Assembly (NCBI GenBank): GCA_002868945.1 | Contig: PKTX01000068.1 | Coordinates: forward strand, 4,505 to 68,504 | Length of the DNA stretch: 64,000 bases | Direction: 5' to 3' | Source of the DNA: Desulfobulbaceae bacterium | GTDB taxonomy: Bacteria > Desulfobacterota > Desulfobulbia > Desulfobulbales > SURF-16 | In this document: one piece after another, positions 4,905 to 64,000 of the stretch | Position numbering within the stretch: position 1 is the stretch's first letter | Layout: the number at the start of each line of letters is the position of its first letter | Notes under the pieces: generated by a model | Databases searched by the model: none | The model's input: the letters and a program-made list of their open reading frames with translations, nothing else | Told to the model about the DNA's origin: nothing | Position numbers and translations under genes: made by a program

Positions 4905-4932
4905 TCCGGCGGGCCGGTCGCTGCGGGTTTTT

Positions 4933-29607: not shown

Positions 29608-29611
29608 GCCC

Positions 29612-31171: not shown

Positions 31172-31427
31172 GGGATATCCTTATGTGACCGTGACGATTG
31201 TATGGCAAAAAAATAGTCGCTTCGGCCGATCTCTGCGTGATGGTCAATAAATAATCTTCTGAAATCTCAACGAGATGTCCCTGTTTGTTTCCGACTTTCT
31301 GATGTTGGACAAAAAACCTCTTTTCACCGATAGACACTGACAATTGCGGCGGTCCGGCTGAAAAACAGTGCGTTTAGCGATTGCGACGAGAGCCGGACCG
31401 ATAGCCGCCTCCCTCACTAACGGGCCA

Positions 31428-31787: not shown

Positions 31788-31962
31788 GGGCGGTAACTCA
31801 TGGATATGCTTTCAACAAAGTAATGATTTCTGGTGTTTTCAATCTTAGCAGGTAATGGTTGAAAAATGAACATGAAACCGAGCAGTACGCAATAAAATCA
31901 CGCAGCTGTCCGGTCCTGTTTGACAGGGGTACGGCCCGTCTTCCCAACTCTGAAAATATCCT

Positions 31963-33425: not shown

Positions 33426-33451
33426 GGGAAGATACCTGACTGGCGTTCATG

Positions 33452-35440: not shown

Positions 35441-35468
35441 AAATTATTCGCGTGCCAGAGGCAACCTT

Positions 35469-35631
35469 GACGGCGGCGCTGAAACTCTTTTTCTCCTGCG
35501 TCGTGGCGGCATCTCGGGTGCTTGATCGTACAATATGTACGCTGTCGCGCCCTCGACACCTCTACTCCGAGGATATCAAAGTTTTTGCTGAGCCGTCTCA
35601 AGCGGTACAATGGACTTTTTGCCGGTCCATC
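35469..35631. mobile_element. MITE-like element, family C
   Basis: Ends GACGG.../...CCATC, flanked by the 6-bp direct repeat AACCTT (35463-35468 and 35632-35637); related to 21397-21593. Confidence 0.75.
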
Positions 35632-35791
35632 AACCTTGGGAAGTAAGGGAAATTTTAACGGAATATCACGAAAAACATCACACTTGACAGTGTAGATGTT
35701 CGCCCTGTTTTTTCAAGGTTTTTTTTGGGTGGCGGTTGCCTTGCCGCTGCGCCCCGCCAGGCTGGCATGGGCGGCGGTTTTCAAGGTACTG

Positions 35792-38032: not shown

Positions 38033-38355
38033 ATCCCTTTGCCGGGATGGGTGGAGGTCAATAAACTTAAACGGAAATATCAAAGGTGGGCAAAAGGTAA
38101 CCAAATTCATATTTGGATTTTTGTGAAAGATTTTTTTGTTTCTGTTTTTGTTAGGTTTTTTCACTCTCTCACCTTAGGGAGACAGCTGGTGGGGTATGAG
38201 GGAATGTTTGGGTGTTTTGTTGTTTTTTCATGAAATTGGGAGGTTGGAAATGTCTTGACTTGGGAACGCAAGTGGGCTAAAAACGATTCTGTTTATATTT
38301 TTTGTCAGGGTGTGCCGGTTTAGATGGAGCAATTCGGTTAAACGTTGGGGGGTAC

Positions 38356-41300
38356 ATGGGCTCGATTTCGCGGGGTGAATTCCGGTGGATTGCCAAGCTG
38401 TTTTACATTTTGTTCATAGTGACTTTCTGTTCGTATGGATCGGCACAGGCAGATTTTATAGCGCAGACAATTGACCAGCAGGGCAGTGTAACTGTCATGC
38501 AGGTGACAGGTGATTACTCGGCTGATCTTTCTAATGGTTCTCCTAATCCCCTCCCTCGCCAGGAAATTGCCAAAGAGTTCTATAAAACCCATGCTGATGA
38601 CTATGATTTCCTGGTCATCTTTTCTAATTTCGATTTCCAGATGCCCGCCCTTGAGGCAGCGGCGTTTTATCTTGGCGTAAAAAACGACACGCACGGCATC
38701 GGGCAGGATCTTTTTGACCATTCCGGTTCTTTCGGCAGTGCGGGTAGATTGCAAGGAACTATTGATATGGGCAACGTGGCCAGCCTGGCCACTGACCCCT
38801 TATCTCCCGAATTTTCATTAACCCTTGGCCTTTTAAGCCATGAACTTTTGCACCGGTGGGCAGCACGATCTTCTTTTCAAAGATTAGATGGCGTCATCAG
38901 TTCTGATCTGTTGGGAATGGGTGGAAATCACTGGAGCTTTTTGCTTGATACAGCCGGTTCACTCCAATACGGCAATCGCTGGGTAGACAATGGTGATGGC
39001 ACCTTTACATCCCTGCCTGGCCGAAAGTATTTCAGCCCGATTGATCTCTATCTCATGGGCCTGCTGGAGAAGTCCCAGGTCCCCCCCATGCTTTTGATCG
39101 ACAATAAAGAAGTCGATCCGGCACAGCTTACTAAAAGCGGGGTGACAATCAGTGGGCAGGCAAGCTATGTAACAATCGATGATATCATCGCTGCTGATGG
39201 TGAACGGATACCTGGTTATACCGATTCCCAGAAGGATTTTAACATCGGCTGCATTCTGGTAACCCAGCCAGGTACCTACACGGGATCAGAGCTGCAGGGG
39301 ATTAACAACCTTGCCAATGCCTGGCCTGTCTGGTTCTCTAGCCTGACGGGTGGAGTGGGTAAAATAGCACTGAATGCAGAGGCACTTGACACCTTACCGT
39401 CTAACCCAGGAATAGTGGAACCTGTGGTTGATCCACGCAGTGCACCACCGGAAGTTCAGGATGGCGTTGCCTGGCTCCAGAATCATCAGCTTGCGGATGG
39501 CTCGTGGCAAGACGCCAGCCGCACCATGGGCAGAGACACTGCCGAAGCAGTTGCCGCTCTTGCCAACTTTACCACTGCCACTACTCATGTTGCAGACGGC
39601 ATCCAATGGCTCACCAATCATGAGCCGTTTCATCTTGATTTTATTGCCAGAAAAATTGAGGTTATGGCCCTTACCGGCAATGATGCTTCTGTCTGGCTCT
39701 CCGAGCTGGTTGGTCGCCAAAACCCTGATGGTGGCTGGGGTAGTCAGCGGAACTATCTCAGCAACCCTTCCGATACCGGCTTGGCACTGCGCGCCTTGTC
39801 CGGGGCCAATTTTTCAGACGAACAAACGGTTGGCAGGGCAGTTTCCTATCTTCTGGGAAATCAGCATGCAGATGGCGGTTGGGGTAATAACGACCAAGGT
39901 TCCATGGTGGAAACCACGGTCAATGTGTTGATGGCCTTTGAAAAATATCTGGATCTTTACGATGTCAGCGCAGCCCGTCAAGCTGCTGTGGACTGGTTGC
40001 TGACCAAGCAGAATGAAGATGGTGGTTTCGGCAACAGTCCCAGTACCATTTATAATACGGCTGCCGCCCTGATGGCGTTAAAAGAGCTGGGGATCAGCGG
40101 TGAGGCACCTGATAAGGCCTTGGCCTACATCCTTGAAAGACAGACCGCCACCGGTAGCTGGGCAGAAAGTCCGTATCAGACTGCCATGGCCATCGAGGCC
40201 ATTTGGCACAGTACCCAAGAGCCAGACCTGGTAATCCCCAACGATGCAATAACTTTAAGCCCGGCGATCATTAGCCAGATCCCAAGCACCTTGACCCTGA
40301 CTGCCAGCCTCTGGAATATTGGTTTAACTGATGTGGCGGATGTCAAGGTGGCACTCTATGCCGACGTGATAGCTGACTCTGCCAAGTTGAGCGAGCAGGT
40401 TGTCAGCATTGCCGGTCAATCTACCGTGCCCCTTAGCTTTGCCGTTGAGGTTGATGATGGCGAAGCCCATCGCTATTACCTGGTGGTGGATCCTGATGAT
40501 GCGGTGGAGGAGTCCAGCGAATCAAATAACACAGTTTTAAAAACCATCTATCCCGATGCCACCTATGATTTTGAGCTTACCTCAGCTGGTCTGACAGTTT
40601 CACCCGTCACTGTTGACTTCCTTCAGGACGTGACTATTTCTGCTACAGTAAAAAACAGCGGTACTCGTAGTGCGTATAGTGTGCCTGTGCGCTACTCAGC
40701 CATTACCCCAAGCGGCCAGATTGATATTGCAACTGTAACGGTTGATGTTCCTGCCGGTTCTTCAGCTACTAAAGAGGTGACCTGGCGAGCTGACCAAGTT
40801 GGCAGCGATATGGATGTCGTGGTTTCTGTCGATCCTGATAATAGCCTCCTTGAACTTGACGAAAGTAATAACTCTGGAACAAGCAAAGTCACGGTTAATG
40901 CTGCTACAGATCCGAACTTGACGGTTAACCATCAGGATATTCTTATTACACCTAGCCCTGCCTCTCAGGGTGACAATGCTATCATCACAGCCCTCATCAA
41001 GAACCAGGGTTTTTCAACGGCCAACAATATCACCGTTGAGTTTTATGTTGGTGTGCCGGGAGTTGACGGAGTGTTACTTGGTCGCCAAGTTATTCCAAGC
41101 TTGAACGCTGCCGAGAGCACTACTGTTGGTATTGACTGGCAGAATATACCAGCACCTGGCGAAAAGGTAATTACGGTGGTGGTTGATCCTGCCAACACCA
41201 TTCAGGAAATTGCTGAGGATGACAACAGTAGTTTTGTGACCTTACCCATTCTTAATTTACCTGACTTTGCCGTTCATACAGGATCTATCTCTTTTCTGCC

Positions 41301-53300: not shown

Positions 53301-55542
53301 ACCCGGCAGTAGCCGCTATACCAGGACCTGGAGTCCCACCGAGGACGATGAGGGCAACCGTAGGATACGCTTCCGGGCCACGGACGGGGCCGGCAATGTC
53401 TCGGAGCCGGTTGCCGTTGATTTTGTTGTTGAGCTGAAGACACCTTTCGAGAAGCTCGAAGGCAGTCTCTCGGTCAGTCCGAGCGTTGCCTACCAGGGCC
53501 AGGAGCTGAGGCTGCCTGTTACCATCAATAATGTCAGTAAAAAGGATCTGGCCAATATCACCGCTCGCGTCATCCTGCAAGACAAGGCTGATGACACCAC
53601 GGTAGCCAGCCTTGACAAGGAAGTCTTGCTGTCGGCCCTGACCACCTACCCGGATAGCTTTACTTACTCCAGCCTGGAACTCGAGGCCAAGGGGTATCGG
53701 GCCGTACTGCAGGTGATCTCGCCGGAGGAGGGGACCCGCGACCTCGCCACTGCGACCTTCACCATCAAATCCTCCCTGGCCGTCAATAAACAGATCTCCA
53801 GGCCGACAAACCTGCTCGTCTGGCTCAATACCCGGTGCAGGCACCATCGCCATCGTCACCAACAACATCAGCAGCATGACTATGGGTTTGGTGATGACGA
53901 TGATGACCATCATGTCCAGCGCAACAAAGACGAGAAGCAGCATCGCTGCACCAAGGCCTGCTTTGTCGCACCTGACTGTGATACTGACTGCCTCCGCCTC
54001 GATTTGCTGGAGGACATTCTGGAGGATGCCACCGATCACTACGCCCTCGTCTTTGATCGTGACGAGTTCCGATTAGAGCTTCGTAACCCCCTCTTTACCG
54101 ATATTGTCATCCTCGGGGACCAGCACCCTTTGACCGACCATTTTGACGAGGAGCTGCGCGACAAGGTCTACTCCGGTTCCGGTTTGATCGTCTCCGGCAG
54201 GCAGTCGCATACATTCTTTGCAGGTCACGACCATGATGACATCCTCGGGGTGGATGAAAAGGGCACCATTGCCGGTCAACACGAGGTTACTATCACCACC
54301 ACGACAAGCCCCATCTCTGAGGCAGACAGCTTTGCCGTTCGGGGCCAGGTTGCCAAGGTCGAGGCGGAGTCCGAGGCGACTATTGCCGCCTGGGCCAGCT
54401 ACGAGATCGCCTGCCCGCCGTCAAAATGGCCATGGCCTGGCAAGGACGACGACAAGGCAAAGACAGAGCAGACCCCTGCCATTGTCCTGCACCGCTACGG
54501 CCTGGGCGAGACCATCTATTATGGTTTTGAGCTCATGGCCAACCTCGACGACGCCTCCTTTCCGCAGCTTTCCGGTCTGATAACAAGAAGCCTGGCCCAT
54601 ATCCATGACAGTTCCGAGGATTTGACCGGGTTTTATCCCTATCAGCTGGTCAAGGTCCAGCGGCAGGTGGAAAGCCTGAGTGATCTCTTCACCATCGAGG
54701 TGCGCGAGGAGAGTTCTGCCGAACTCCTCCTCTTTGACCCGGAAAGCAACCAGTGGCTCACGGACAACCCGTGGACCATCACCATGGATCTCGAGGCCAA
54801 GGCAACAGTTGATTTGCCCTTCTATGTCCTGCTGCCCGACCAGGCCGGTCTGTTTACCACCAGTACGGAGGTGGGCTTCTGGATAGACGAGAAATACGTC
54901 CCCTTTGCCAGCCTGCTCACCGAGTTTGATCTCAGTCATGATCGTGATCAGCTCATCGACCAGCTCCTGGCAGAGGTTGCCGGGCTGCTGGTGAGCCGCA
55001 AGGAAAGGGGGCATGTCCGGGCCATTGAGACGTATCTTGCCAAGGTGGAGGGCCGGCCGCTTTTAACCGCCGAAGATATTAATAGAAATATCCACGACAT
55101 CGAGAAGGCGGTGAACGCCCTGCTCCGCATCGATAGTGCGGATATTCATCCCCTGCGTCTTGGGCTTGCAAGGCTGCTGCGCATCGAGCAGGGGCGCTTT
55201 TACTACTTCGTGCCGCCGCTTGATTATCTCACCGGGACGCTCACAGGGCCTCAACTTCCTCTGCAAAGCCGAGACACGGGCCGTTTCACCTACACCCTCA
55301 CCAACGACCAGGACGTTCATTTTGACGAACTTACGGTGCGGGTGCGGCTCGTGGAGGCGGCGAGTTGTTGGCCGCTCAGGGAAGAGGAGGAGAGAGAGCT
55401 GCCGGCCGTAAGCAGTGTGGAGGGCGAATTTCTGGTGAAGACCAGGAGGGCCAAACCTGGCACCTACCAGGCCATCCTCGAGGTCGGCCTTGATGGTGGC
55501 GATTACCGGGAATTGGCCCGAACCACCTTTGAGATCATCTAG
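38356..55542 (+). CDS. Giant (about 5,730 aa) secreted multidomain protein: zincin-like HExxH domain, prenyltransferase/squalene-cyclase-like repeats, CARDB, FlgD-like, TolB/PD40-like propellers, Ig/FN3, discoidin-like
   Basis: Single uninterrupted ORF; signal peptide ending AQA-D; HELLH; Q..DG[GS]W repeats; VDP...[IV].E..E.NN repeats; [FI]SPN.DG..D; WSPDG; start placed at ATG 38356. Confidence 0.9.
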   Translation: MGSISRGEFRWIAKLFYILFIVTFCSYGSAQADFIAQTIDQQGSVTVMQVTGDYSADLSNGSPNPLPRQEIAKEFYKTHADDYDFLVIFSNFDFQMPALEAAAFYLGVKNDTHGIGQDLFDHSGSFGSAGRLQGTIDMGNVASLATDPLSPEFSLTLGLLSHELLHRWAARSSFQRLDGVISSDLLGMGGNHWSFLLDTAGSLQYGNRWVDNGDGTFTSLPGRKYFSPIDLYLMGLLEKSQVPPMLLIDNKEVDPAQLTKSGVTISGQASYVTIDDIIAADGERIPGYTDSQKDFNIGCILVTQPGTYTGSELQGINNLANAWPVWFSSLTGGVGKIALNAEALDTLPSNPGIVEPVVDPRSAPPEVQDGVAWLQNHQLADGSWQDASRTMGRDTAEAVAALANFTTATTHVADGIQWLTNHEPFHLDFIARKIEVMALTGNDASVWLSELVGRQNPDGGWGSQRNYLSNPSDTGLALRALSGANFSDEQTVGRAVSYLLGNQHADGGWGNNDQGSMVETTVNVLMAFEKYLDLYDVSAARQAAVDWLLTKQNEDGGFGNSPSTIYNTAAALMALKELGISGEAPDKALAYILERQTATGSWAESPYQTAMAIEAIWHSTQEPDLVIPNDAITLSPAIISQIPSTLTLTASLWNIGLTDVADVKVALYADVIADSAKLSEQVVSIAGQSTVPLSFAVEVDDGEAHRYYLVVDPDDAVEESSESNNTVLKTIYPDATYDFELTSAGLTVSPVTVDFLQDVTISATVKNSGTRSAYSVPVRYSAITPSGQIDIATVTVDVPAGSSATKEVTWRADQVGSDMDVVVSVDPDNSLLELDESNNSGTSKVTVNAATDPNLTVNHQDILITPSPASQGDNAIITALIKNQGFSTANNITVEFYVGVPGVDGVLLGRQVIPSLNAAESTTVGIDWQNIPAPGEKVITVVVDPANTIQEIAEDDNSSFVTLPILNLPDFAVHTGSISFLPAVPKDGDVVTINVVVQNLGEQGREDVSVHYYEGESVISTEVIPVFGGNSQQELSFTYDTLNKSGSHQFRLVVDEQNLVVEQREDNNQATRILGVQNADLWLSERYISPNGDGIQDSTEFFFRLESAQTVRVEVVNSKGFVNRTFAGGDLEETLGSTLTWDGLADKGTVVADGEYQIRVVDGGGSVLAALPVTVDNDRSPLTEAIGTDYLLQNNITCELPDIGYLNWSKTWLWNWTPDESGIVFLINNWDELLPDYPAGFYSMGPDGSDISPYFPTSWQDDSIYSYYYEFGLGMALSQYSQKLAFIRTIYKKSTSARDYEVQELWAVDRSGANLTLLDSYLTNESKIEFAGDEDYMPVGAWSPDGSKFAYFIRKNSGSRDEAEEGKLYIVNADGSGKIEIPIGVVTYYAGYPLKWSPDGKFLAYTAFDPDDDYLLELGIVDGADGSKLAVDNVARGYETYFLWTQDSSSVVYLTSAWAVGLDDADQALLSLNTAGEQKLLWQTEDWVRFDTVDDSIYGPPFTLFDDNTIVISAYDYDIGEQQIYLIDIHGVAENNRQYTQVESMVIDGGTGYDESNYYGDCEDYAVSSASGLVAYADCSDDTGSIKVCDSLGGCTKYENGQPPAGSVGWGSPYDLRWSADGRRLAYIAQLPVEENGHIANNFLDTVVILDVGSGDKKLFVLGVAENEPFAEAATRVYYENTLQWMGDNVSVMGSDENGTFVVDSENGVLNYLPIEAYDYYPEEVRLSPLGNYITVNSYKDTVTPCASSTNIWSISSLLNLKAVLAVTKDSSALYLKGTAADRNFESFTLEYADLDNPTLWQLIAPPTYSPRVNEDFTSWVPPYEGNFLIRLTVRDKAGNEASSRKRVSWGMSASLTNLYQTENIFSPNGDGVKDSVNLHYSVTEPIHLEFFIYDEDGLLVNSYSKDHSAAGVDYVTWDGRNSIGQVVEDGDYVIKVFDYSFGFTVDTSPPQARIGFSGLYFADSLLKARLEGHVDDENLLEWIVEYGEGINPQEWHEYLIGTASVLGDGLFKALSGGSLGFAVNKQFRITAKDEAGNVGIALTSDLLEEALLITRFDESFFSSGKDEQGEWQTLDRVSLDKNIPGKHSFTVNETYISSLSSVNVQYRIGQEWINAPDYSAGLSAFAVIPWDNSTLAYNEIEAMRVRATTESGQEVFSNVLLWAADLEPSEEIFYAGLCYDESSLEKYKGAALLNLPEDSVQVKFQYSDSSEDVWTDFLGVGVVTVPNSIVFYPYQYLGDDNYLIRMVGESFENEYFSDSIAYPPTTKCESDVSPPSGGGGDSSSSSKPALFLSVVLAEAEGCNNVAPGLATISASPLYVDAILFRSLSYYLENDSGSRLLKTFDLTSEPWGEAVVDTNLLAEGAYTVKAVFEYEQDSNSETLTAQSIFFVDRTLPIARLTGFCPALFDDPISGTKWSGLKIDGIAEDNKGVKRYSLFYGYGENPTSWEPALNHDGYQITGGSRDGLLGVWDYSKLKWDTYTILIKTVDRAGNISCDTKLFTINETGRLNASLDTFLFSPNTDGKNDFLNISYDFTEPATITTEVWNNDGLVRQISSSESLGAPETIVWDGKDAAGPDGQPVEDGVYTIRIQATDSCGAAEQLSFQVTVDNTPPEVSISSPQVADNLAMLVPVAGVTTDIHFEQYILEAISDTATNQISIGFSPVSEQQLGSWNINGLEGQWSLRLVATDRAGNSSEALVPFNLGARNDLLKALLAEPEIFSPNDDGKRDSAEIRYELAQPSNAKLEIFDESSTLIESADLGAVEQGSYSFVWQGNDGTTAYPDGNYQVALTVSLASDPTISQREVVKVTLDNTLPVIDISSPQDQVFLQDPQTIEGSLGDDNIATYSLVLEDENGVVWEEQGAQSRLDYVFTLIGDLVDGTYSLTTTVTDQAENLSSNTIAFVVDKTAPGLLIQSPQNGELFGGVNDLVQIIGNLEEVNLDHFVLRYGAGNEPSLWTELVAGDVLPNNDELASLTVGKDAGISDGIYTLSLLAIDKAGWESEVRVGFEVDNTPPEVTFLAPMAGGYVTQPLAIIGSVLDQNLREYSVSVSPGDCIDAYKWQTLATSYSVVNNGDLASWKILPSDGKYCLDIEAEDANDFVAKQKIDVQVDTLPPAPPVLTGLIEKRLNAALSWSQSGEADLAGYNLYKDGKRINENLLNALEYSEVNLPEGEYVYTVKAVDHAGQESVSSNEIALLVDVTGPSVNIASPQNDDVVSDLITIKGGAYSSGDFKEYRIYVGVGSNPSEWQQIRRSPVPIPYGDLASWDTLGLAVGQYAIKLEAEDLLGNVSSAVVEVSIDNEPPSPPVLLSATPTNADVDLVWQTNSETDVAGYLLYRNHQLVNAPTGTVVDDMSLYLIDGTAIIDSGVPDGTFVYYLEAMDNAGNISGQSNSLEVSIDMRPPHAEIVTPQTGHVFEYPLTVKAESIDSDVATVQFQYKRASDSVWQDLQKVSTVPFVISFDPSVKGEPYGDFNLRSIATDQAGKVDPFPEEIVVTYTDLTPPQPPVGLASLTQGGQVNVEWQANSETDFAGYNLYQLIGESRVKLNTALLETTTFLHQGDQGLDLEDGTYVYGLTAVDGHGNESKLSSPVEALIYAPLLQQSYTPTLEAQSVLIGTAQPQAQVELWLENDQQNIILGTPQANVDGSFTHQVDLLPGENSFFAKATDVIGNASKPSEQMVVVLSALPSMPTGLDVIVDGYNATATWNANSEADILGYQLVRNDQEVEPTSLVSSGVTHASDSDWTSSRAFDGSSSSYWGSNNYSDVFGPVWWQLDMPEQKMVNEVAIEWRQSGDTIYCASDFEIQVWSGYGWVTKEKISGNSAPQNTFDWDQAYRTDKIRIYITDLTPLDNGSKYVSIFEVRVSEEHVISSTSYSDTGLTDGEYQYQVAAINEHGFKGPLTPISEVTVGDVVAPEPPINLLATVTGSDVQLTWAANSEVDLAGYNVYLQKETDWVKLNTDLVQEAAYLHGGLRNGSYSYRVTAVDGVGNESQPSQVATADIEIALPFSSPLLAITAPAEGSSLFLTWGEVSLAAGYNLYRSTSVGGPYTKTHTAPLNAQSYNDSGLTNGISYYYVATAVDSLGNESAYSNEVMATPNKTLIPVKPTLLSPTTTGVPLTVQQETVRVAGWAEPFSSVELYSGNLSLGRTYATGSESTEDYNLSDYVSQATMSPDGHNMAYLSWSSFYIYNTVTEEAQYLGRNAESPSWAPDGKRLAYVMYDSSWDMRLHIYEVENDTSSLLISDQDVQERYPSWSADGAKIAFVSSRNNSQGIWLKDLITGELTELVSDVYPNYIALAPDARHLVFSQGGTLYLVDLVTKTKTTIDEALNSRADYGNTPCWAPDSTLLAFASSRQGDVYIYVVDIATGEINKLTDIASESSPFAWSPDGARLLYVERQSGMIWSVDVAEPGARELVASEDPFSVRSVHWPKSGEIYYVTNYTLSKIRPAGLFTFEDVPLAIGDNILTAISTDSSENVSPSSDPTTVTLDAGAFTDLVVEPADILVNPIAPLSGDMTSIAVAVRNESGVVAENVDVSLSMWEPGGQVVELTTVTVDTIQPYNEALIQVAWDSTAKAGEFTILATADVSGKILEVSEVNNFASSSFHVALEEGIGFTMQTDKDSYAENEQVAIDLRLHNSGIAQGVTLKVDIEDGNSVQISSFDDINAALTYGGAEAYSLTWNTATTYAGTYQVRGQVFDAAGSLLREEVAPFTLEPNDCLEAALSLAQSSFGPREDVRMTGDLINCGSNYNQPELSVHFTINDGENPLHDQSYDLPWLLADGEARLNDQWNTALQSPGDYTAQLEVSRDNVIQAAASQSFTIEPVVLLAGSVKADPSVSFLGRPVGVDYLVANNGNTTASGLEFTIIVQDAQTGAVVAEASHTLGLDVSATYNSRLDINGSVFRLGSYNVLLQAERAGEVTTLATDTLLIKDGTPPVVEPLSPLAAEVYNGPLSFAVNATDNATGIKSVEYSLDGIKWLPLPAAAPGSSRYTRTWSPTEDDEGNRRIRFRATDGAGNVSEPVAVDFVVELKTPFEKLEGSLSVSPSVAYQGQELRLPVTINNVSKKDLANITARVILQDKADDTTVASLDKEVLLSALTTYPDSFTYSSLELEAKGYRAVLQVISPEEGTRDLATATFTIKSSLAVNKQISRPTNLLVWLNTRCRHHRHRHQQHQQHDYGFGDDDDDHHVQRNKDEKQHRCTKACFVAPDCDTDCLRLDLLEDILEDATDHYALVFDRDEFRLELRNPLFTDIVILGDQHPLTDHFDEELRDKVYSGSGLIVSGRQSHTFFAGHDHDDILGVDEKGTIAGQHEVTITTTTSPISEADSFAVRGQVAKVEAESEATIAAWASYEIACPPSKWPWPGKDDDKAKTEQTPAIVLHRYGLGETIYYGFELMANLDDASFPQLSGLITRSLAHIHDSSEDLTGFYPYQLVKVQRQVESLSDLFTIEVREESSAELLLFDPESNQWLTDNPWTITMDLEAKATVDLPFYVLLPDQAGLFTTSTEVGFWIDEKYVPFASLLTEFDLSHDRDQLIDQLLAEVAGLLVSRKERGHVRAIETYLAKVEGRPLLTAEDINRNIHDIEKAVNALLRIDSADIHPLRLGLARLLRIEQGRFYYFVPPLDYLTGTLTGPQLPLQSRDTGRFTYTLTNDQDVHFDELTVRVRLVEAASCWPLREEEERELPAVSSVEGEFLVKTRRAKPGTYQAILEVGLDGGDYRELARTTFEII

Positions 55543-55576
55543 CGATTTTGCCATACGTCTTTAACGAGTTATTTCT

Positions 55577-58500
55577 ATGAAGAGCTTTATGCCGCGTTTA
55601 CATAGCCTGCCGTTTCTTTTTCTGTTGCTTCTCTCTTTATTGCAGCCGGTTACATCCCTGGCAGCAAGTTTTGACCTGGAAAAGGAGGTGCAAACCTCCC
55701 TGGGCCAGATGCTGAGGCAGACCAAGAAAATCCAGACCCGCCTTGCTGAAGGCAGGCCAATAGCACATGAGGTGTCTGCCCTTAAAAAACGGGCGGCAGC
55801 AATGGCTCGCCAGCATGAGGCTCTGCAGGAGCGCTTCCGCAGCCGCGGAGATGCGGTGAATATTCATGGCCTGAAAATATGGCAGCGCCACCATGAGGTG
55901 TTTAGCCGATATCAAGAGACCATGGAGCGCATTTTGGCGCTGATCGATCTCCTGCCTGCTGACGGTTCCGTCACTGCCGAGGAGATAAACACCCTCCACA
56001 ACCTGCTCAACTCTGTTCTGCCCAGGAAAAAACAAAGAATTCTCGGCACCCTGCCGTACCGGAATCTCAATTACGGTGCAGTTGCCGCCCGCACCGAGCC
56101 AACCATTGTCCCGGCCTATAAGGGCGGCAACAAGGTGGTGGCAGAGCCTGACCTTGCCGGTTCGCCGGAGGCCCCCATCTCCCGGCCCATTGCCGAACTT
56201 GCTGAGAGTCTGCACTGGAACCCGGTGGAGATCTACCAGTGGGTCAAGGATAATATTAAGACCGAATGGTACTGGGGCTCCATGAAGGGAGCGGAGCAGA
56301 CCCTGCTGCAAAAAAGCGGCAATGATGCCGATCAGGCGGCGCTGCTGGTGGCCCTGCTGCGCTCGTCCGGTTTCCCCAGCCGGTATGTGCGCGGTGTTAT
56401 CGGCTTTTTCCCGGACATGGGGCGGGCCCGGCAGCTGCTGGGCATTGACAGCAATCAGGAACTGGCCGCCTTCTTTCAGAAGGCAGGCATCCCCTTTACC
56501 ATTGAGACAGTGGGGGGCGAGCTGGTTATTAATATCGAGCATATCTGGGTGGAGAGCTTTATCCCCACCGCCAATTATCGCGGCGCCGTAATAGACGAAC
56601 ATGGTAAGGCGTGGCTGGCCTTTGATACGGCCATCAAGGCCGAGGTGTCCTACAGCAGCCTGGCCGATACCATGAGCGCCTTCAGCTTTCATGATCTTAT
56701 CGCCGGCTATCTGGGTAGTAGCCGCAGCGAGAGCTTCAGCGACTACAGCCGGGCCGCCATTGTCGATTATTTGGCCAACCAGGCGCCTGAATCGACCTTT
56801 GCCGATCATCTGCTGAGCGCTACGGTGGAGCCGGAACGGTTGGAACTGCTGCCTGCCAGCCTGCAGTTCAGCCAGCTGGCCATCACCGGCGAGTACACCA
56901 GCCTGCCGGACGACCTCATTCATCAGGGCCGTTTTGTGGCCCAGTCCGCAAGCGGTGCTATCTTTTTTGACGAGAGTCTGCCGCTTCATCAGCTCTCCAA
57001 CCAGTCCATTGCCCTGACCTACGAGCCGGAAACCGTGGAGGATCAGGAGGTGATCAACTCCTATGGTGGGCTCAGTAACACGCCGGCCTATCTCATCCGC
57101 CTGCGTCCTGTTCTCACTGTGAACGGTCAGCGGCTGTTCATTGGCCAGGGCGGCATGGCAGCGGGCGAGGATTTTTCCTTCAAGGTTGAACTCGTAACGC
57201 CCCACGGCCCGGAGACCGTCGAGAACCAGGTGACCTGCGGTAATCTCGTTGTCCTTGGCCTGGTTAGCCAGCAGGTGGTGATGCCCGAGGAGCTGGTCAA
57301 TACCCGCAAGGGTGCCGAGCGCCTCCTCTTTGAGCAGGCCTTGAGCTATATCGAGTCCTGGAACAAGGCAGAGCAGGAGCAGACCGCCCTCCTGCAGCTC
57401 CAGCTCTCCCGCCCCATTCCATCCCTGATCACCATGGGTGGCGTGCTGGACGTCACCTATCTCTTTGATACGCCCTACAGCTATACCTGGAAGGGATTGT
57501 TTGTCGATGCCGACCTGCGTGCGGCTGAAACCGTTTCAGGCCTGGCCCTGCAGGACGGCAGCGAAACCGGCACCACCTTCATGCGCCTGGCGGCCCTGGC
57601 CGGTTCCGTGGAGGAGCATCGCGTCTTTGAGCAGGGCTTTGGGGTGGATAGCATCTCCACCGCCAAGATCTTGGGCCTGGCTGCTGAAAACGGTATGGAG
57701 ATCATCACCGTCGATAGTAGCAATATGGCAACCGTGCTGCCTACCCTTAATCTGCCGACGAGCGTCCGTGAGGATATCGAAAACAGTATCGATCAGGGCT
57801 TGCTGGTACGTATCCCGGCAAATGAGTTGAGCCGCAATAGCTGGAGCGGTATCGGTTACATCAAGGAGGATCGGCTCAGTGGCGAGGCCGGCTACATGCT
57901 CGCTGGCCTGCTGGCCGGTGGCATGACTACCCCTGCGCCGGGCGACTGGTCCGATTATTTCATCCGTGATCTGCTTGCCAACCCCTTCAGCGAGGCCCCC
58001 AACACCAATCCCGACGCCGTTACCGCCTTAAAAGTCATCCACGCCAGCGACTTTCAGGAGGGCATTGTCGGTCAGCCCCTGGCCACACCGCTGCAGGTCA
58101 TTGCCCTGGACAAGGACGGCCTGCCAGTGGCGGGCGTCACCGTTACCTTTTCGGTACAGGCGGGCGGCGGCGCCTTTGATGCCGGCTATGCCAGCAAAGA
58201 GGTAACCGTTCTCACGGATAGCAGTGGTATCGCCCAAGCACCTTTTTATCTCAGCAAGAGTACGTCGGAGAACCCGGCCTATCGCTGGATGACAACCGCC
58301 GTCACCCACCCTTATAATATCCAGAGCGCCACCAATACCAACAGCCCCCGAGTGGATGCCAGTATCATCGATGCCCAGACCACAAGCGGCATCATGGTTG
58401 CCAGCCCCATCACCGCGCTGGCCTTCCCGGATCAGCCGGTAAAGATGGTCAAGCTTCTCGGTGACAACCAGAGCGGCGCTCTCCTCACCTGGCTCGGACC

Positions 58501-61500
58501 GGTGATCGTCTCTGTGCAGGACCAGTACGACAACCCGGTGTCAAACGTCGATGTCACCTTTACTATCGCCGACCCAGTGGAACAGACGCCCTGCGCCAAG
58601 GCCAATCAGGACAGCCGTCCCGGCCTGCTGGTTTCCGTACTGGACCCCTGCATGAGCCAGGTGCCGGTCTATGGCGAATGCGGCAGCCCACAGCTGACCT
58701 TTACAAGCTCGGACCAGGGCAGCCCGGCCCAGATCATCCTGGGGGCCGTGCCCGATGCCGTCTATAAGGTAACTGCCAGCGGCGCCGGCCTGCAGCAGGT
58801 GTTTTCTGCCACCTCCCTGCCCTTTGGTAACTGTGACGACCAGAGCTTTCCGGAGCATAACCTGGTGCTTAAATCCATCTACCTGGCCGACGATAATGGC
58901 CAGACCATCAATGCCGGCCAGGTGGGCAGCTCCATCCCCCTTCAGGCCAGGATGTATTTTGCAAGCGAAGGCATGGAGGAGAGGGACGTCACCTTTAGCT
59001 GCAGCCCGGACAAGACCTGTCCGGTGGAATATGGCAACCGCACCTATAGCATCAATACCGATTTTGTCAGCGACTCGCTCACCTTCAATGGTCAGCAGGC
59101 CAGCGGCGGTGCCGGCACTGCCGGCCTCTACAGCCTGGATTACCAGGTGCCGGCTACACCGGGCAAGCACACCGTTGCCGTCCAGGGCACTGCCTCCACC
59201 TATTTTCATACCATCCCTGATGTCTGCACGAGCTGTGACGAGATAAATGAGGAGTTGTCCTTGGATGCCTCCGCCAGCCTCGAGGTCTACGCCGTTGAGG
59301 TGGTGACCGAGCCGAGCCTGGTGGTGCCTGTTGATCCGGCCGGTGTGCTGGCCTGTGACCTCCGGATTGACTATGAGATTCTGCCGGCCGACTACAGTGC
59401 CGGCAGCGCCTATGTCATTATCTCCGACGGCGAGCAGGAGCTCTTTCATATCCCTGGCGACTTACAGGGCCAGGGCTTTGTTACCCTGTCTCGCGGTTTC
59501 CCCTTTGAGATCAACAAGCAGTACAGCGCCACCGTGGTCCTCAATTATGGAGCCGGCTATTCAGAGGTTCGTTCCAGCACCATCCCCTTTGAACTCGGCC
59601 AAATAACCATCGACGCCTTGAGCCTCCAGGACGGCAAGCATGCGGTCATGCAGGGTAGTGATGAAGTCCTGCTGGCCCGCACCACGCCGGCTGGCCGCGA
59701 GGTAACCTACGAGATCGTCGCTGTCACCGAAGAGGTGGAGGCCGAGATCTTTGAGGGCAATAAGATCAAGGCCCTGCCGCACAGCAATAACGGCTACGCC
59801 ACGGTCAAGGTGACGGATGCCGAGTTCCCCTGCATCTATGAGCTTGTCGATGTGCCCATCGGCTGCCAGTCCTGCGCCACCGAGGCCGGGGTCATGTGTA
59901 AGTATAACGCCAAGTTTAATAACGGCAGTATTGATGCGGTCTTTAATATCGGTGCTGCTTCCAACGGCGGTATCGCCGGCAGCCTGATCCTGCGCGCCAA
60001 GCAACCCTCCACCCTGTTGGCCCAGCCCCAGGGCCTGCGCTTCTCGTCCCTTGCCGGCGGCGAGACCGAGGTGGTGGTTGACCCGGCCAGCGGTACGGTG
60101 GCCCAGCTTATCGCTCCGGCCTCCCTGGCCGATATCCAGGTGCTCAGCCCCTTTAGCTACCAGATCAGTCTCTATCCCATTTCTGCCAAAGGCGACATGG
60201 TGGATGGCCGCTACGAGATCGACCAGGAAAGTGTGCCCATCACCAGCTGGACCATTGAGAATCCGGCCCAGTCCGACACTGATTTTGGTACCCTGCGCAT
60301 CACCGAAGAGCGCGGCAAGACCTATGTCAGCGAGTATCACTGGGACGAGGCCACCAACGCCTGGACCCTGTCCCAGGGCAATGGCCAGCAGTTGGAGAGT
60401 AAGAGCGAGTCCGTCAACCTCGACGGTGACCGGGTGGTTACCCGCATCATCAGCGATAGCCAGGGTGTGGTGGCCTCAAAGACCGTTACCACCTACCATT
60501 ACTTCCCCTGGGGTGAGGAGATCATCTCGAAGGTGGTTGATCCGGACGGTGCAAAACTGACCACCATCTACAGCTACTACGAGGATATCGACCAGGTCGG
60601 CAGCTACAGCCGCCTGCGCCAGGTGGTTAATGCCGACGGCTCCTGGCAGCGCAGCGAGTATGACGAGTTGGGCCGTACCATTCGTGAGATTAGCAACTGG
60701 CTCGATGCCCCTGCCACGGCCTCTGCCGGCGAGGCCCGGATGGTGAGTTACGACTACACCCCGGTTGATCCAGGTGACCAAGACGCCCCCCGTTTCCGGA
60801 TGAGTCCGCGCACCACCACCGAGACCATCCTCGGCACCGTGGTCAGCAAATCCTTCAAGGCTTACATTGGTGACGGCCTGCTCTCCGATCGTCAGGAGAT
60901 CAGCGAGCAGTGCACCACACCTACCTGCTCCTACGGCAGTGCAGACAACCAGCGCACCGTCACTACCTATTACCTGTCCAATAACGTTGATCCCACCACC
61001 ATGCGGGTCCACCCCTCCTCGGGTAAGGTCAAATCGGTGTTGAGTGCTGATGGCCAGCTCACCAGCTATACCTATGAGACAGGCACCTTTACCACGAGCG
61101 GCACCCCGGACCAGTGGGCCTTCACTCCGGGCGATGGCTGGGACAGCAGGCAAATCGTTACCCACGGCACCCAGGCCAGCCCGGCTGGTGTGGCTGCTAA
61201 AACCACCAGGTCTATCACCATCAGCAATCGCTATAAACAAACCCTGTTTAACGAGACCCAGGTCTATACCGGCTCCGGCTATGAGCGCCTTAACTGGTCG
61301 GCCAATACCCTTGATGACCTGGGCCGCATCGCCAAGGTAGAACGCTCCGACGGCACCTACACCGAAACCGCCTGGGGCTGCTGCAATAAAGACAGTGAAA
61401 CCGACAGCCAGGGTAATACCACCACCTACCAGTACGACAACCTGCGCCGCCTGGTCTCCCAGGAGCGCCAGGGTCCCAACCTAAGCGCCATTACCACCGA

Positions 61501-64000
61501 TTATGTCTATGACGCAGCCGGCAGAAGAACCAAGCAGACGGTGACAGCCGGTGCCCTGAGCCAGACCAGCAGCTCAAGCTATGATAATGCCGGCCGCCTG
61601 CAAGATAGCATTGATGCGGCAGGTCTTGCCACCAGCCACAGCTATAGCGCTGACGGACTCACAACCATGGTGACCCGGCCAGGCGGTGCCACTGAGATCA
61701 CCGAGAACTATCCGGATGGTCAAATTAGGTCTATCACCGGCACAGGCGTCATCGCCCAGTACTATACATATACAATCAACAGCAATGGCAGCCGCACCAC
61801 CAAGGTCAATTCGGTTAATGAAACCTCGCCGCGCTGGCAGCAATCCACCGCTGATATGCTGGGTCGCACCATCCTGACTGAACAGCCCGGCGCCACGGCT
61901 GTGGAAAGCAGCGCCAGCTTCTACGATGATCTCGGTCGCCTGATCCGCACCACCACCACCGGCCAGCCTGATCGCCTCTACACATACGACGAGCTGGGTA
62001 ACCAGATCGCCTCCGGCCTTGACCTTGATACGTCCGGTGTCCTTGAAGAGGCCTCTGCTGACCGGATCAGCGCCACCATCAGCCAATATATCAAGATCGG
62101 TAGCGACTGGTGGCAGCAGTCCACAAGCCAGGTCTTTGCCACCACGGATGATGCCTCTGCCACCACCGTGGCCAGTCAGCGCAGCCGTGTCACCGGCCTT
62201 GGTGTAAACGGCCTCATCTCCGAGGCAGTAAGCATTGATATCCACGGAAATGAGACCATCAGTCGCAGCACCCTTGAGCGGTCCAGCCGTAAGGTGACAA
62301 GTGAAGTCACCTATCCTGATTCTGCAATGCCTGCCAGCCAGGTCAGTATCGGCGGCTACCTGCAATCAACAACCAGTAAAACCGATATCACCACCACCTT
62401 TGCCTACGACGATCTGGGCCGCCGCATCAGCACCACAGATCCGCGTACCGGAAGTAATACAACCCATTACGATGACAAGGGCAGGGTGGATTATGTTGAG
62501 GACGCTGCTGGCAACCGTATCAGCTTTGCTTACGATCAAAACACCGGCCGTAAGATCAGCCAGACCAATGCCGAGCAGAAGAGTACCTATTTCAGCTATG
62601 ATGAGCTGGGCCGCATTACCCATACCTGGGGCAGCGGTAGCTACCCTGTACAATACGTCTATGACGACTACGGTCAGCGTACTGAGATGCATACCTTCCG
62701 TGCTGAGAGCGGTTGGGATGCGCCCATGTGGCCTGCAACCACTGCTCCGGCAGACATCACCACCTGGCATTATGACGAGGCCAGCGGTCTGCTCCTGGCC
62801 AAGGAAGATGCCCTAGCCCAGCAGACCAACTACGCCTACATCACAGGCGGTCGTCTACTCACCAGGGCCTGGGCCCGCGCCAGCGGTAGCGTTACCACTA
62901 CCTATAATTATGATCCGCAAACAGCGGAGCTGACCCTCATAGATTACGCAGATAGCACCCCGGATATTAGCTTCAGCTATGACCGCTTGGGTCGCAAGAC
63001 TTCTGTGACCGACGGCTTGGGCGAGCGCACCTTCAGCTATACCCCGACCCTGCAGCTCGATAGCGAGGTGATTGTCGGCGGTGCATACGCTGCTACCCTG
63101 ACCAGACAGTACGACACCCTGGTGCCGGGCCGGCCAAATGGTATCATCCTGGATAGCGACTATCAGGTGACCTATGGCTTTGATGAGCTGGGTCGTTTTG
63201 ATAACCTGAGCTGGCAGCAGGGTACTCAGAGCGGTAGCAGCCAGTATGGTTATCTGGCTAACTCAAACCTCCTTGAGTCTGTCAGTAGCGAGGCAGGCGG
63301 TGTGGCTTATAGCACCAGCTACAGCTACGAGGCTAAGCGTAATCTCAAGACCGCTGTCAGCAACAAGGCAGATGCCACCACGGTCTCCGACTATCTCTAC
63401 GAGTATGACGCCCTGGGCCGCCGCAAGAACGTCAAGAACAGCGGTATAGCCTTTAATGCCGAGGCCTTCTCCGCCTATGACTATAATGATCGTAACGAGC
63501 TGATCGGCTCTGAGCGGTATCTGGGTACTGATATTGCCGATACCAGTCAGCCTGTTACTGACGAGAAGAGAAGCTACCAGTACGATGCTATTGGTAACCG
63601 CGAGCTTGCCAGCCTTGGTGACGGGGTAGGGCAGCAGGATATTGATTACACTGCCAATGCTGTGAACCAGTACGAGCAGGTGACTGGTGGCTCCATTACA
63701 GATCTGAGCTATGACGAGGATGGTAATCTGGTTGGTTACAGCAAGGATGGTAAAGCGCTAACACTTGTCTTCAATGCTGAGAATAGGTTGGTTGTTGTTG
63801 AGCCGGTTACTCCAGTGACTGGAGATAGCCGCTCTGAGTTTGCCTATGACTATATGGGCCGGAGGGTCAGTAAGGTTGTTTCCGGCTGGGATGGTAGTGG
63901 CTGGCAGCTTACTGACACTGGCTATTTTGTCTATGACGGCTGGAACCTGATTGCTGAGTTGGATGAGACTGGAGTAACCGAGGCTGCTTATGTTTGGGGC
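55577..64000 (+). CDS. Giant secreted transglutaminase-like / Ig-like / Rhs (YD-repeat) protein, partial (>2,800 aa)
   Basis: Manual translation MKSFMPRLHSLPFLFLLLLSLLQPVTSLAA-SF; GNDADQAALLVALLR..G.P.RYV.G, EHIWVE; DQYDNPV..V.VTF; many YD..GR repeats; ends YDGWNLIAELDETGVTEAAYVWG in the same frame; no terminated ORF in this frame appears in the track. Confidence 0.88.
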   Translation, partial: MKSFMPRLHSLPFLFLLLLSLLQPVTSLAASFDLEKEVQTSLGQMLRQTKKIQTRLAEGRPIAHEVSALKKRAAAMARQHEALQERFRSRGDAVNIHGLKIWQRHHEVFSRYQETMERILALIDLLPADGSVTAEEINTLHNLLNSVLPRKKQRILGTLPYRNLNYGAVAARTEPTIVPAYKGGNKVVAEPDLAGSPEAPISRPIAELAESLHWNPVEIYQWVKDNIKTEWYWGSMKGAEQTLLQKSGNDADQAALLVALLRSSGFPSRYVRGVIGFFPDMGRARQLLGIDSNQELAAFFQKAGIPFTIETVGGELVINIEHIWVESFIPTANYRGAVIDEHGKAWLAFDTAIKAEVSYSSLADTMSAFSFHDLIAGYLGSSRSESFSDYSRAAIVDYLANQAPESTFADHLLSATVEPERLELLPASLQFSQLAITGEYTSLPDDLIHQGRFVAQSASGAIFFDESLPLHQLSNQSIALTYEPETVEDQEVINSYGGLSNTPAYLIRLRPVLTVNGQRLFIGQGGMAAGEDFSFKVELVTPHGPETVENQVTCGNLVVLGLVSQQVVMPEELVNTRKGAERLLFEQALSYIESWNKAEQEQTALLQLQLSRPIPSLITMGGVLDVTYLFDTPYSYTWKGLFVDADLRAAETVSGLALQDGSETGTTFMRLAALAGSVEEHRVFEQGFGVDSISTAKILGLAAENGMEIITVDSSNMATVLPTLNLPTSVREDIENSIDQGLLVRIPANELSRNSWSGIGYIKEDRLSGEAGYMLAGLLAGGMTTPAPGDWSDYFIRDLLANPFSEAPNTNPDAVTALKVIHASDFQEGIVGQPLATPLQVIALDKDGLPVAGVTVTFSVQAGGGAFDAGYASKEVTVLTDSSGIAQAPFYLSKSTSENPAYRWMTTAVTHPYNIQSATNTNSPRVDASIIDAQTTSGIMVASPITALAFPDQPVKMVKLLGDNQSGALLTWLGPVIVSVQDQYDNPVSNVDVTFTIADPVEQTPCAKANQDSRPGLLVSVLDPCMSQVPVYGECGSPQLTFTSSDQGSPAQIILGAVPDAVYKVTASGAGLQQVFSATSLPFGNCDDQSFPEHNLVLKSIYLADDNGQTINAGQVGSSIPLQARMYFASEGMEERDVTFSCSPDKTCPVEYGNRTYSINTDFVSDSLTFNGQQASGGAGTAGLYSLDYQVPATPGKHTVAVQGTASTYFHTIPDVCTSCDEINEELSLDASASLEVYAVEVVTEPSLVVPVDPAGVLACDLRIDYEILPADYSAGSAYVIISDGEQELFHIPGDLQGQGFVTLSRGFPFEINKQYSATVVLNYGAGYSEVRSSTIPFELGQITIDALSLQDGKHAVMQGSDEVLLARTTPAGREVTYEIVAVTEEVEAEIFEGNKIKALPHSNNGYATVKVTDAEFPCIYELVDVPIGCQSCATEAGVMCKYNAKFNNGSIDAVFNIGAASNGGIAGSLILRAKQPSTLLAQPQGLRFSSLAGGETEVVVDPASGTVAQLIAPASLADIQVLSPFSYQISLYPISAKGDMVDGRYEIDQESVPITSWTIENPAQSDTDFGTLRITEERGKTYVSEYHWDEATNAWTLSQGNGQQLESKSESVNLDGDRVVTRIISDSQGVVASKTVTTYHYFPWGEEIISKVVDPDGAKLTTIYSYYEDIDQVGSYSRLRQVVNADGSWQRSEYDELGRTIREISNWLDAPATASAGEARMVSYDYTPVDPGDQDAPRFRMSPRTTTETILGTVVSKSFKAYIGDGLLSDRQEISEQCTTPTCSYGSADNQRTVTTYYLSNNVDPTTMRVHPSSGKVKSVLSADGQLTSYTYETGTFTTSGTPDQWAFTPGDGWDSRQIVTHGTQASPAGVAAKTTRSITISNRYKQTLFNETQVYTGSGYERLNWSANTLDDLGRIAKVERSDGTYTETAWGCCNKDSETDSQGNTTTYQYDNLRRLVSQERQGPNLSAITTDYVYDAAGRRTKQTVTAGALSQTSSSSYDNAGRLQDSIDAAGLATSHSYSADGLTTMVTRPGGATEITENYPDGQIRSITGTGVIAQYYTYTINSNGSRTTKVNSVNETSPRWQQSTADMLGRTILTEQPGATAVESSASFYDDLGRLIRTTTTGQPDRLYTYDELGNQIASGLDLDTSGVLEEASADRISATISQYIKIGSDWWQQSTSQVFATTDDASATTVASQRSRVTGLGVNGLISEAVSIDIHGNETISRSTLERSSRKVTSEVTYPDSAMPASQVSIGGYLQSTTSKTDITTTFAYDDLGRRISTTDPRTGSNTTHYDDKGRVDYVEDAAGNRISFAYDQNTGRKISQTNAEQKSTYFSYDELGRITHTWGSGSYPVQYVYDDYGQRTEMHTFRAESGWDAPMWPATTAPADITTWHYDEASGLLLAKEDALAQQTNYAYITGGRLLTRAWARASGSVTTTYNYDPQTAELTLIDYADSTPDISFSYDRLGRKTSVTDGLGERTFSYTPTLQLDSEVIVGGAYAATLTRQYDTLVPGRPNGIILDSDYQVTYGFDELGRFDNLSWQQGTQSGSSQYGYLANSNLLESVSSEAGGVAYSTSYSYEAKRNLKTAVSNKADATTVSDYLYEYDALGRRKNVKNSGIAFNAEAFSAYDYNDRNELIGSERYLGTDIADTSQPVTDEKRSYQYDAIGNRELASLGDGVGQQDIDYTANAVNQYEQVTGGSITDLSYDEDGNLVGYSKDGKALTLVFNAENRLVVVEPVTPVTGDSRSEFAYDYMGRRVSKVVSGWDGSGWQLTDTGYFVYDGWNLIAELDETGVTEAAYVWG

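Follow-up and report, generated by a model that had tools for sequence, protein, structure and literature searches.

To our knowledge, it is largely unexplained how Rhs and other polymorphic toxins with a plain Sec signal get out of diderm cells and to their targets. A gene for a putative toxin of this kind, called gene B here, lies directly downstream of a gene for a giant protein, called gene A, in a 64,000-nucleotide stretch of DNA from a Desulfobulbaceae bacterium (the window; G000:C27:4505-68504, on a contig of 74,437 bp). Several described systems resemble this pair in part. WapA-type toxins of Gram-positive bacteria have a signal peptide, YD/Rhs repeats, a variable tip and a downstream immunity gene and act independently of type VI secretion (T6SS), features that B resembles. 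WapA acts from a monoderm wall, and B must also cross an outer membrane, because its organism encodes secretins. We know of no WapA counterpart to the N-terminal head of B or to A. T6SS Rhs effectors, including the Tle1 lipases with their periplasmic Tli proteins, share with B an Rhs cage, an Rhs core, a Tle1-like tip and a lipoprotein-like immunity candidate. They differ from B in that B has a Sec-type signal but no PAAR or VgrG domain, and the T6SS sheath protein TssC (PF05943) and PAAR (PF05488) had no match in its own genome, which is rated 99.99% complete. T6SS delivery of B was rejected on these grounds. Tc (ABC) complexes also consist of a very large partner and an Rhs-cage protein that encloses a toxic tip, encoded by adjoining genes. 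The predicted contact between A and B, however, joins a toroid to a pseudo-transglutaminase and not a propeller to a TcA channel. A Tc-like route was likewise rejected, since Pfam and NCBIfam gave no TcA, SpvB or TcB-type families in A or B.

The closest described class is that of Zhang, de Souza, Anantharaman, Iyer and Aravind (2012, PMC3482391). The relevant passages of that paper describe proteins with a signal peptide, an inactive transglutaminase domain, sometimes an immunoglobulin (Ig) domain, RHS repeats and a variable toxin, place them under export that depends on the type II secretion system (T2SS) and Sec, and suggest that the dead transglutaminase domain binds cell-surface peptides. 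B has a signal-like start, a triad-deficient transglutaminase domain, a Big_1 domain, RHS repeats and a toxin tip, and taken alone it is a new member of this class. Two differences stand out against the same passages. They give no partner gene, whereas a toroid-bearing giant is linked to the B family, and the head of B is a module of ~1,350 amino acids (aa) that is also found without RHS, on lipases or phosphodiesterases. Literature searches returned no paper describing the pairing of A and B, although Figure 5D, other figures and the supplements of Zhang et al. may list members of the B family. The pairing appears to be new, and to be conserved yet facultative.

The reading favored here, which as a whole is regarded as modestly probable, is that A displays or positions the Sec-exported Rhs toxin B outside the cell, independently of T6SS. 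B would be a Sec-exported polymorphic Rhs toxin with a signal, a helical bundle and a head of about 1,350 aa made of a dead transglutaminase and Ig domains. Its Rhs/YD cage, closed by the Rhs core, would encapsulate a 228-aa Tle1-like lipase tip, and a lipoprotein encoded by an overlapping gene would be the immunity protein, acting in the periplasm. A would be a giant, likewise exported by Sec, whose domains are of adhesin type (CARDB, Ig, fn3, discoidin and beta-propellers). A toroid near its N-terminus, resembling the thioester-containing domain (TED) but without the thioester, would dock the pseudo-transglutaminase head of B. The docked toxin would then be displayed or positioned by A for attack on neighboring cells.

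Gene A is open from a TTG codon at 38302 to 55542 on the forward strand. The TTG start would give 5,746 aa, 18 more than the 5,728 aa obtained from the ATG at 38356. The start was placed at 38356 because a G-rich stretch precedes this ATG and the resulting length equals that of a database cluster identical to protein A (P0124, 5,728 aa). The stop codon of A (55540-55542) is separated by 34 bp from the ATG of gene B (55577). Gene B, on the same strand, is still open at 64000; on reading past the window it is complete at 3,168 aa (L001:2082-11588) and ends at the window-equivalent position 65083 (L001:11588), so that the first 2,808 codons are inside the window. The features of the two genes, with the evidence for each in brackets, are as follows.

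38356..55542, + strand: gene A, encoding a putatively secreted giant of 5,728 aa (open reading frame, translation, cluster P0124, Pfam domains)
38356..38451, + strand: signal-peptide-like N-terminus of A, aa 1-32, ...GSAQA/DF (sequence, hydrophobicity heuristic)
38452..39405, + strand: conserved N-terminal domain of A, aa ~33-350, candidate zincin (alignment A2)
39478..40350, + strand: alpha/alpha toroid of A, aa 375-665, predicted docking site for B (Pfam, alignment A3, complex prediction, co-occurrence)
40351..52383, + strand: middle region of A, domain arrays with low G+C at third codon positions (GC3) (Pfam and NCBIfam domains, GC3)
52384..55539, + strand: C-terminal module of A, aa ~4677-5728 (domains, GC3, conservation as a unit)
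55543..55576, no strand: gap of 34 bp between A and B (coordinates)
55577..64000, + strand: gene B, first 2,808 of 3,168 codons (open reading frame)
55577..55663, + strand: signal-peptide-like N-terminus of B, aa 1-29, ...VTSLA/AS (sequence, hydrophobicity)
55673..56017, + strand: helical bundle of B, aa 33-147 (AlphaFold2 model, pLDDT about 67-89)
56174..56656, + strand: pseudo-transglutaminase core of B, aa ~200-360 (Pfam Transglut_core, alignment A1, 3isr_A alignment, Foldseek)
56834..56872, + strand: conserved segment of B, aa 420-432 (ERLELLPASLQFS), centre of the predicted toroid contact (complex prediction, conservation)
58088..58249, + strand: Big_1 (invasin/intimin-type) Ig domain of B, aa 838-891 (Pfam)
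60254..64000, + strand: Rhs/YD-repeat shell of B, from aa ~1560 (a start read from the sequence by eye), running past the window (RHS_repeat, TIGR01643, TIGR03696)

Protein B begins with a basic n-region followed by a hydrophobic core and then a small-x-small end (...TSLA/AS); the 10-residue Kyte-Doolittle maximum is 3.1. A hydrophobic N-terminal window was found in 90 of 92 open reading frames (ORFs) of B homologues. The AlphaFold2 model places a helical bundle of ~115 aa between this signal and the transglutaminase domain. Pfam matches in B were Transglut_core (aa 217-350), Big_1 (aa 838-891) and RHS repeats (PF05593, E 1.1e-23), and those of NCBIfam were TIGR01643 (YD repeats) and TIGR03696 (Rhs-associated core). 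Among the 11 heads of alignment A1, G248-N249-D250, D252 and H322 are invariant, and at least 90% of the heads retain D350. The catalytic Cys of 3isr, a transglutaminase-like protease of Cytophaga, aligns to D250 of B (codon 56324-56326 in the window) in a profile alignment with 3isr_A. The Cys of the Cys-His-Asp triad is replaced by an invariant Asp, and the transglutaminase module of B is therefore catalytically dead. A weak match to the transglutaminase fold (3isr, E 1.8e-3) was the sole Foldseek result for the head model. In the downstream segment ERLELLPASLQFS, P426 and F431 are invariant, and A427 and L429 are kept in at least 90% of the same alignment. An earlier note, made from the letters of this DNA, had seen two co-oriented giant ORFs 34 bp apart with signal-like N-termini, the second encoding an Rhs protein with a pseudo-transglutaminase head. 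The ORF list and the translations agree with the first point, and the Transglut_core match, D250, the RHS repeats and the Rhs core agree with the second. Its view that the machine is poorly characterised does not hold for the architecture of B, whose class is the one set out in the passages of Zhang et al. (2012).

The toroid of A gave Pfam matches to SQHop_cyclase_C (53 bits) and TED_complement (27.7 bits vs a cut-off of 22), as well as a prenyltransferase-type match. It contains no Cys, and therefore no thioester. The TED_complement match brings in an explanation that is considered highly improbable, in which A is an alpha-2-macroglobulin (A2M)-like protease trap of the periplasm or surface with a papain/transglutaminase-fold partner, by analogy to the yfaS-yfaT (mag) operons. 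In the type-2 A2M operon of E. coli (yfaPQSTA), beta-sandwich arrays and a TED-like toroid stand beside a protein of the papain/transglutaminase superfamily, a likeness to this locus by analogy only. The A2M gene of this operon lies beside the DUF1175 gene yfaT, whose product has a weak NlpC/P60 match (E 3.8e-4), and type-2 A2Ms are not known to have a thioester. The giant of locus L018 has a TED_complement match of 37.4 bits and a weak A2M match, and MG2 (PF01835) is among the families of several A homologues. However, hhalign of the B head against YfaT gave a probability of 0.3%, and homology of the head to YfaT was rejected. The toroid of A scores higher as a squalene-cyclase-like domain than as a TED, it has no CxEQ because it has no Cys, and its TED_complement score is weak. 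The yfa operons also have no toxin module, and a protease trap would leave the Rhs cage, the toxin tip, the immunity candidate and the polymorphic family ends of B unexplained.

Docking of B on A, as proposed by the favored reading, was evaluated by complex prediction with B aa 190-790, A aa 375-665 and self-supplied alignments. The ipSAE values were 0.76, 0.75 and 0.75, compared with 0.00 for the best of three controls. The partners had a pLDDT of 81 or more, and the runs shared 93% or more of their contacts. In calibration, 58 of 80 solved complexes attained the ipSAE mark, as did 2 of 110 mismatched pairs; these counts hold just roughly because the alignments were self-supplied. The predicted contact sets B aa 420-432 (ERLELLPASLQFS), which make the lowest-error contacts, and B aa 331-346 on the loop face of the toroid. 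Conservation of the B interface was 0.70 vs 0.58 for the rest of B, and the value of 0.70 was reached by 34 of 10,000 random sets and by 39 of 600 circular shifts. This model suggests that the pseudo-transglutaminase of B may dock on the toroid of A in vivo.

Homologues of the two genes are neighbors in other genomes, in either order. An A-like gene lies directly upstream of a B homologue in two metagenome-assembled genomes (L004, gap of 24 bp, and L008, gap of 57 bp) and in seven metagenome loci (L051, L056, L072, L089, L095, L099 and L105). The order is reversed in ten loci, where A is downstream of B and zero to four small ORFs separate B from the A N-terminus (L052, L057, L062, L073, L074, L077, L080, L083, L086 and L108). 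The N-terminal domain of A also occurs upstream of a B homologue in L053, L065 and L071. L065, the sole complete case of these three, encodes a 1,509-aa protein that combines the HExxH domain described below with the toroid, CARDB and RTX repeats. B homologues at 25-30% identity adjoin toroid and CARDB proteins (L016-L018, L023, L003 and both G077 loci), and in these distant loci the neighbor keeps just the toroid and CARDB part of A. In G269, a toroid giant begins about 9 kb downstream of the B homologue. The protein tables further contain 14 A/B pairs with an identical size of the longest contig, which serves as a proxy for the same contig.

Co-occurrence was counted in 401 genomes drawn evenly from the phylum, with a threshold of E <= 1e-30 for both the B query and the toroid profile A3. 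The toroid profile matched in 14 genomes and the B query in 16, and 13 genomes contained both. The toroid occurred without B in one genome (G379, in 600 contigs), and B occurred without the toroid in three. The Fisher p value was 8.5e-21, or 1e-13 after removal of the five genomes that had given rows to A3; this test treats related genomes as independent, and the 13 shared genomes span six taxonomic families. B was found in none of 24 genomes of the same family as the host, which indicates that the pair is patchy and probably mobile. The earlier note had proposed that A pairs with B and had named synteny, genome co-occurrence and a structural prediction of the partner domains as ways to check it. 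All three gave results in its favor (neighboring homologues, B-like proteins in 13 of the 14 toroid genomes, and ipSAE 0.75 vs 0.00), but adjacency was seen in just 5 of 11 informative loci, so that the proposal stands in part.

The Rhs-associated core TIGR03696 was found at B aa 2863-2940 with 85.2 bits vs a cut-off of 32.5, and a DPxG-type motif ends it (...IDPLGK; the sequence there is ...RDPIAEKGGLNLYGFVKNRPVGLIDPLGK). The tip is the 228 aa after the core. It matches PF09994 (T6SS_Tle1-like_cat) with 38.1 bits vs a cut-off of 27 and contains GWSRG; the GxSxG nucleophile motif is a feature of the Tle1 (DUF2235) phospholipase family. The next ORF, of 174 aa, starts inside the stop codon of B (TGATG) and has a hydrophobic N-terminus with a lipobox-like LSAC. 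From these sequence features, the tip would be toxic and the overlapping lipoprotein gene is an immunity candidate for it. Further downstream, an orphan Rhs fragment of 505 aa (L001:13032-14853) combines RHS with a type I dockerin inserted ahead of its Rhs core, and its tip is Gly-rich; a membrane-like ORF of 108 aa overlaps the end of the fragment. The end of the orphan tip differs from the B tip. The possibility that the orphan is a displaced B tip was rejected, because its protein identity to the core end of B is 28% with no DNA similarity, and the fragment is thus not a recent copy of B. A third Rhs core is present on contig C80 of the same genome. The items that had been suggested for inspection past 64000 are therefore all present there: the Rhs core ends in DPLG, a toxin tip follows it, and both an immunity-like gene and an orphan tip lie downstream. 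None of the outcomes that the earlier note had named as counting against its reading was observed. ORFs of ~300-330 aa, which may be immunity or accessory genes, directly follow B homologues on the 3' side in L007, L049, L072, L074, L077 and L088, sometimes in tandem. One of them has a weak Big_1 match, and the B protein of L074 has no RHS matches.

The first 820 aa of B have at least 210 homologues, with lengths of 1,742-5,544 aa, in a search that restricted scoring to the 8,000 candidates with the most shared words. By tblastn, the shared N-terminal module of the family is about the first 1,350 aa, Big_1 included. A hand count among the 120 B-head homologues listed gave 25 with RHS repeats, 28 with PF01663 (phosphodiesterase/alkaline-phosphatase-like), 18 with alpha/beta-hydrolase or lipase families and 49 with the head alone. 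These counts show that the head is a constant module with polymorphic, partly non-Rhs ends. They also favor a different use of the module, namely an exoenzyme display platform rather than a weapon, in which the B head hangs hydrolases on a giant scaffold to scavenge nutrients, with the Rhs-caged form as a side branch. The B homologue of L008, which ends in DUF900, and the dockerin in the orphan tip would fit such a platform. It is nevertheless judged improbable, because the full Rhs cage, the core and the Tle1-like tip of B, with the overlapping lipoprotein gene and the orphan tip after them, make up the layout of a polymorphic toxin locus, and because a constant head with variable C-terminal ends is itself typical of toxin families.

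In protein A, the hydrophobic core again follows a basic n-region and precedes a small-x-small end (...SAQA/DF), with a 10-residue Kyte-Doolittle maximum of 2.7. Of the 11 aligned A sequences, 10 had a comparable N-terminus, and that of L108 is short by about 7 residues before the mature start. The following domain of ~320 aa contains H162-E-x-x-H166-R-W and H192-W-S, which are invariant in all 11 sequences of alignment A2. The HExxH codons are at 38839-38853, and the motif lies inside a predicted helix (aa 151-169). Homologues of this domain number at least 302, in proteins of 3,160-10,056 aa, mostly 5,400-6,300 aa, with 50-69% identity across the 119 listed besides its own cluster P0124. Together with the homologues of B, they mark A and B as real genes. 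It gave no match in Pfam, among PDB sequences or among PDB folds (best E 0.9; model pLDDT 66.0), and its nearest named ESM Atlas clusters are metallopeptidases with weak scores of 0.78-0.79. Since these matches are absent and the ESM Atlas leads are weak, it is hypothesized that the HExxH domain is a zincin protease, which may have a role in processing. For the processing protease that the earlier note placed in a surface scaffold or adhesin, the single indication is the invariant HExxH. The domain also occurs in proteins of 2,214 and 2,942 aa (G173:C12 and G106:C6; L115-L118), with no B-like gene within the fetched ~36 kb (about 17-18 kb on each side), and is therefore not confined to the A-B module.

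The middle region of A consists of arrays of CARDB, FlgD-Ig, Big_13, fn3, F5/8-type-C (discoidin) and TolB-like PD40 propeller domains. The C-terminal module of ~1,050 aa contains CARDB, a Big_7/OmpL47-type domain, a His/Asp-rich linker and an end of ~600 aa without a family, for which every ESM Atlas score was below 0.9 (C-terminal 599 aa). L008, L051, L072, L089, L095 and L105 all keep this module as a unit. The linker is a low-complexity stretch rich in His, Gln and Asp (CRHHRHRHQQHQQH...DDDDDHH; window ~53560-53700, A aa ~5085-5130) before the last ~600 aa, and the A homologue of L008 has an acidic, His-rich stretch at the matching place. From its composition, the linker may bind metal. 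Just upstream of A-type genes in ten loci (L052, L055, L058, L062, L065, L074, L077, L080 and two more) there is a conserved ORF of 111-172 aa without a Pfam family. No counterpart of it was found upstream of A in the window.

Several observations weigh against display of B by A. An A-like gene was present upstream in 12 of 71 loci (close B homologues with at least 1 kb readable upstream) and downstream in 6 of 18 (complete B with at least 3 kb downstream), and of the 11 loci informative on both sides, 5 had an adjacent A and 6 had none. These counts exclude L010, L013 and L057, which have no intact ORF over the B match, although L057 still has an A-like gene downstream. In G092 and G402, B is present with no toroid match at E <= 1e-10, and in G045, 11.6 kb downstream of A contain no B. 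The toroid profile A3 was built from toroids beside B genes and may be tuned to that subfamily. The stand-alone model of the B head is poor (mean pLDDT 58.9). Conservation of the A interface is 0.515 vs 0.507 for the rest of the toroid, with no excess. The signal peptides of A and B were judged by a rule of thumb. The Tle1 match of the tip is partial (profile positions 7-121 of 287), a PDB sequence search with the tip gave no match and thus no solved lipase, and the 174-aa immunity candidate has no Pfam or NCBIfam family and no relative among the other fetched loci. Finally, the toroid lies in a low-GC3, foreign-looking part of A, and B is at genome-like GC3. GC3 is 0.41 in codons 1-4676 of A and 0.69, much as elsewhere in the genome, in the last ~1,050 codons, with a change point near 52384, and it is 0.65-0.77 in B and the other genes of the window. 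A and B may therefore have different recent histories.

Much of this can be taken together in the explanation that B works alone as a Sec/T2SS-class Rhs toxin of the inactive-transglutaminase type, with its head anchoring it on the surface of the producer, in line with the proposal of Zhang et al., while A is an unrelated giant adhesin that often resides on shared mobile islands and the predicted contact is a false positive. This is considered unlikely, though it deserves more weight than either the protease trap or the exoenzyme platform. An adjacent A is absent in 6 of the 11 fully informative loci and in 59 of the 71 with readable upstream sequence, B occurs without a toroid match in G092 and G402, A is a compositional chimera beside a B of native composition, and the interface side of A is not conserved above background. 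The complex alignments were self-made and shallow, with 2 of 110 mismatched pairs passing calibration, and the passages of Zhang et al. (2012, PMC3482391) account for the head without a partner. Against independence of the two proteins stand the 13 genomes with both, out of 14 that have the toroid and 16 that have B, the linkage in both gene orders down to 25-30% B identity where just the toroid and CARDB part remains, and the complex score of 0.75 vs 0.00 for controls.

The GC3 break in A falls at the beginning of the C-terminal module, which other A homologues keep as a unit, and this suggests a recent recombination swap of the 5' 14 kb of gene A. A wider hypothesis can be built on display of B by A, and it is offered tentatively, since all its parts together fall somewhat short of an even chance. 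The A and B families would form an undescribed, T6SS-independent extracellular system of Desulfobacterota-type, Nitrospirota and Geobacteraceae genomes. The thioester-less, TED-like toroid of its giant scaffold would be a socket for a dead-transglutaminase plug that heads interchangeable Rhs-caged toxins, free lipases or phosphodiesterases, and, to judge from the GC3 break of A, single modules of the pair could be exchanged by recombination.

The N-termini of A and B suggest that both proteins are exported by Sec, and passage of the outer membrane would take place by T2SS or another route. As had been stated from the sequence, Pfam and NCBIfam gave no PAAR, VgrG, RTX, two-partner secretion (TPS) or autotransporter domains in A or B. 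The autotransporter route was rejected because no such domains occur in A, B or the scanned flanking ORFs. Two-partner secretion was rejected because no TPS, ShlB or filamentous-haemagglutinin families were found in A, B or the flanks, a scan that covered A, B, the ORFs at 26678-37980 and those downstream of B, with TpsB searched for within this range and not in the rest of the genome. The type IX secretion system (T9SS) was rejected because the CHU_C/T9SS-type matches in A are internal, overlap FlgD-Ig and are below the NCBIfam cut-offs. The C-terminus of A has no recognisable sorting signal. The genome encodes four secretins. The one on C42 has a GspK-like match at a distance of about 6 kb, and the one on C64 a weak GspL-like match, also about 6 kb away. 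The GspK match is weak evidence because this family also matches in 10 of 14 control genomes. Export of A and B by Sec plus T2SS is plausible.

The role of the inactive-transglutaminase head has been guesswork since 2012, and the A-B locus gives it a concrete predicted answer, a plug into a toroid. If this answer is right, anaerobic bacteria of sediments and bioreactors would have a new route of display or delivery that depends on a partner, several hundred unannotated proteins of 5,000-6,000 aa would gain a function, and it would be a case in which a catalytically dead enzyme fold is reused as a docking module. Geotalea uraniireducens, a cultured species, carries a B-head homologue (P0121) and could bring experiments within reach.

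A histidine kinase and a sigma-54-dependent response regulator are encoded at 26678-29607 of the window, ~9 kb upstream of A, and 12 of the fetched loci have a similar pair. This link to A may be due to chance, because both families are common. No sigma-54 promoter was found upstream of A; the sole match in the window is inside gene A on the opposite strand, and 93 of 100 shuffles contained at least one match to the consensus. After the putative toxin-immunity pair there is an IS200-like Y1 transposase gene (L001:12300-13001; C27:70299-70997), which could help to move or swap toxin cassettes. Related ORFs occur near B homologues in 16 loci, this one counted, and in L007 such an ORF is fused to a DnaA_C helix-turn-helix domain. 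The last 103 bp of the contig (C27:74335-74437) repeat C27:70234-70336, the start of this transposase gene, with 99% identity, and contig C35 likewise ends in a near-identical transposase fragment. The assembly break at the contig end is probably a repeated element.

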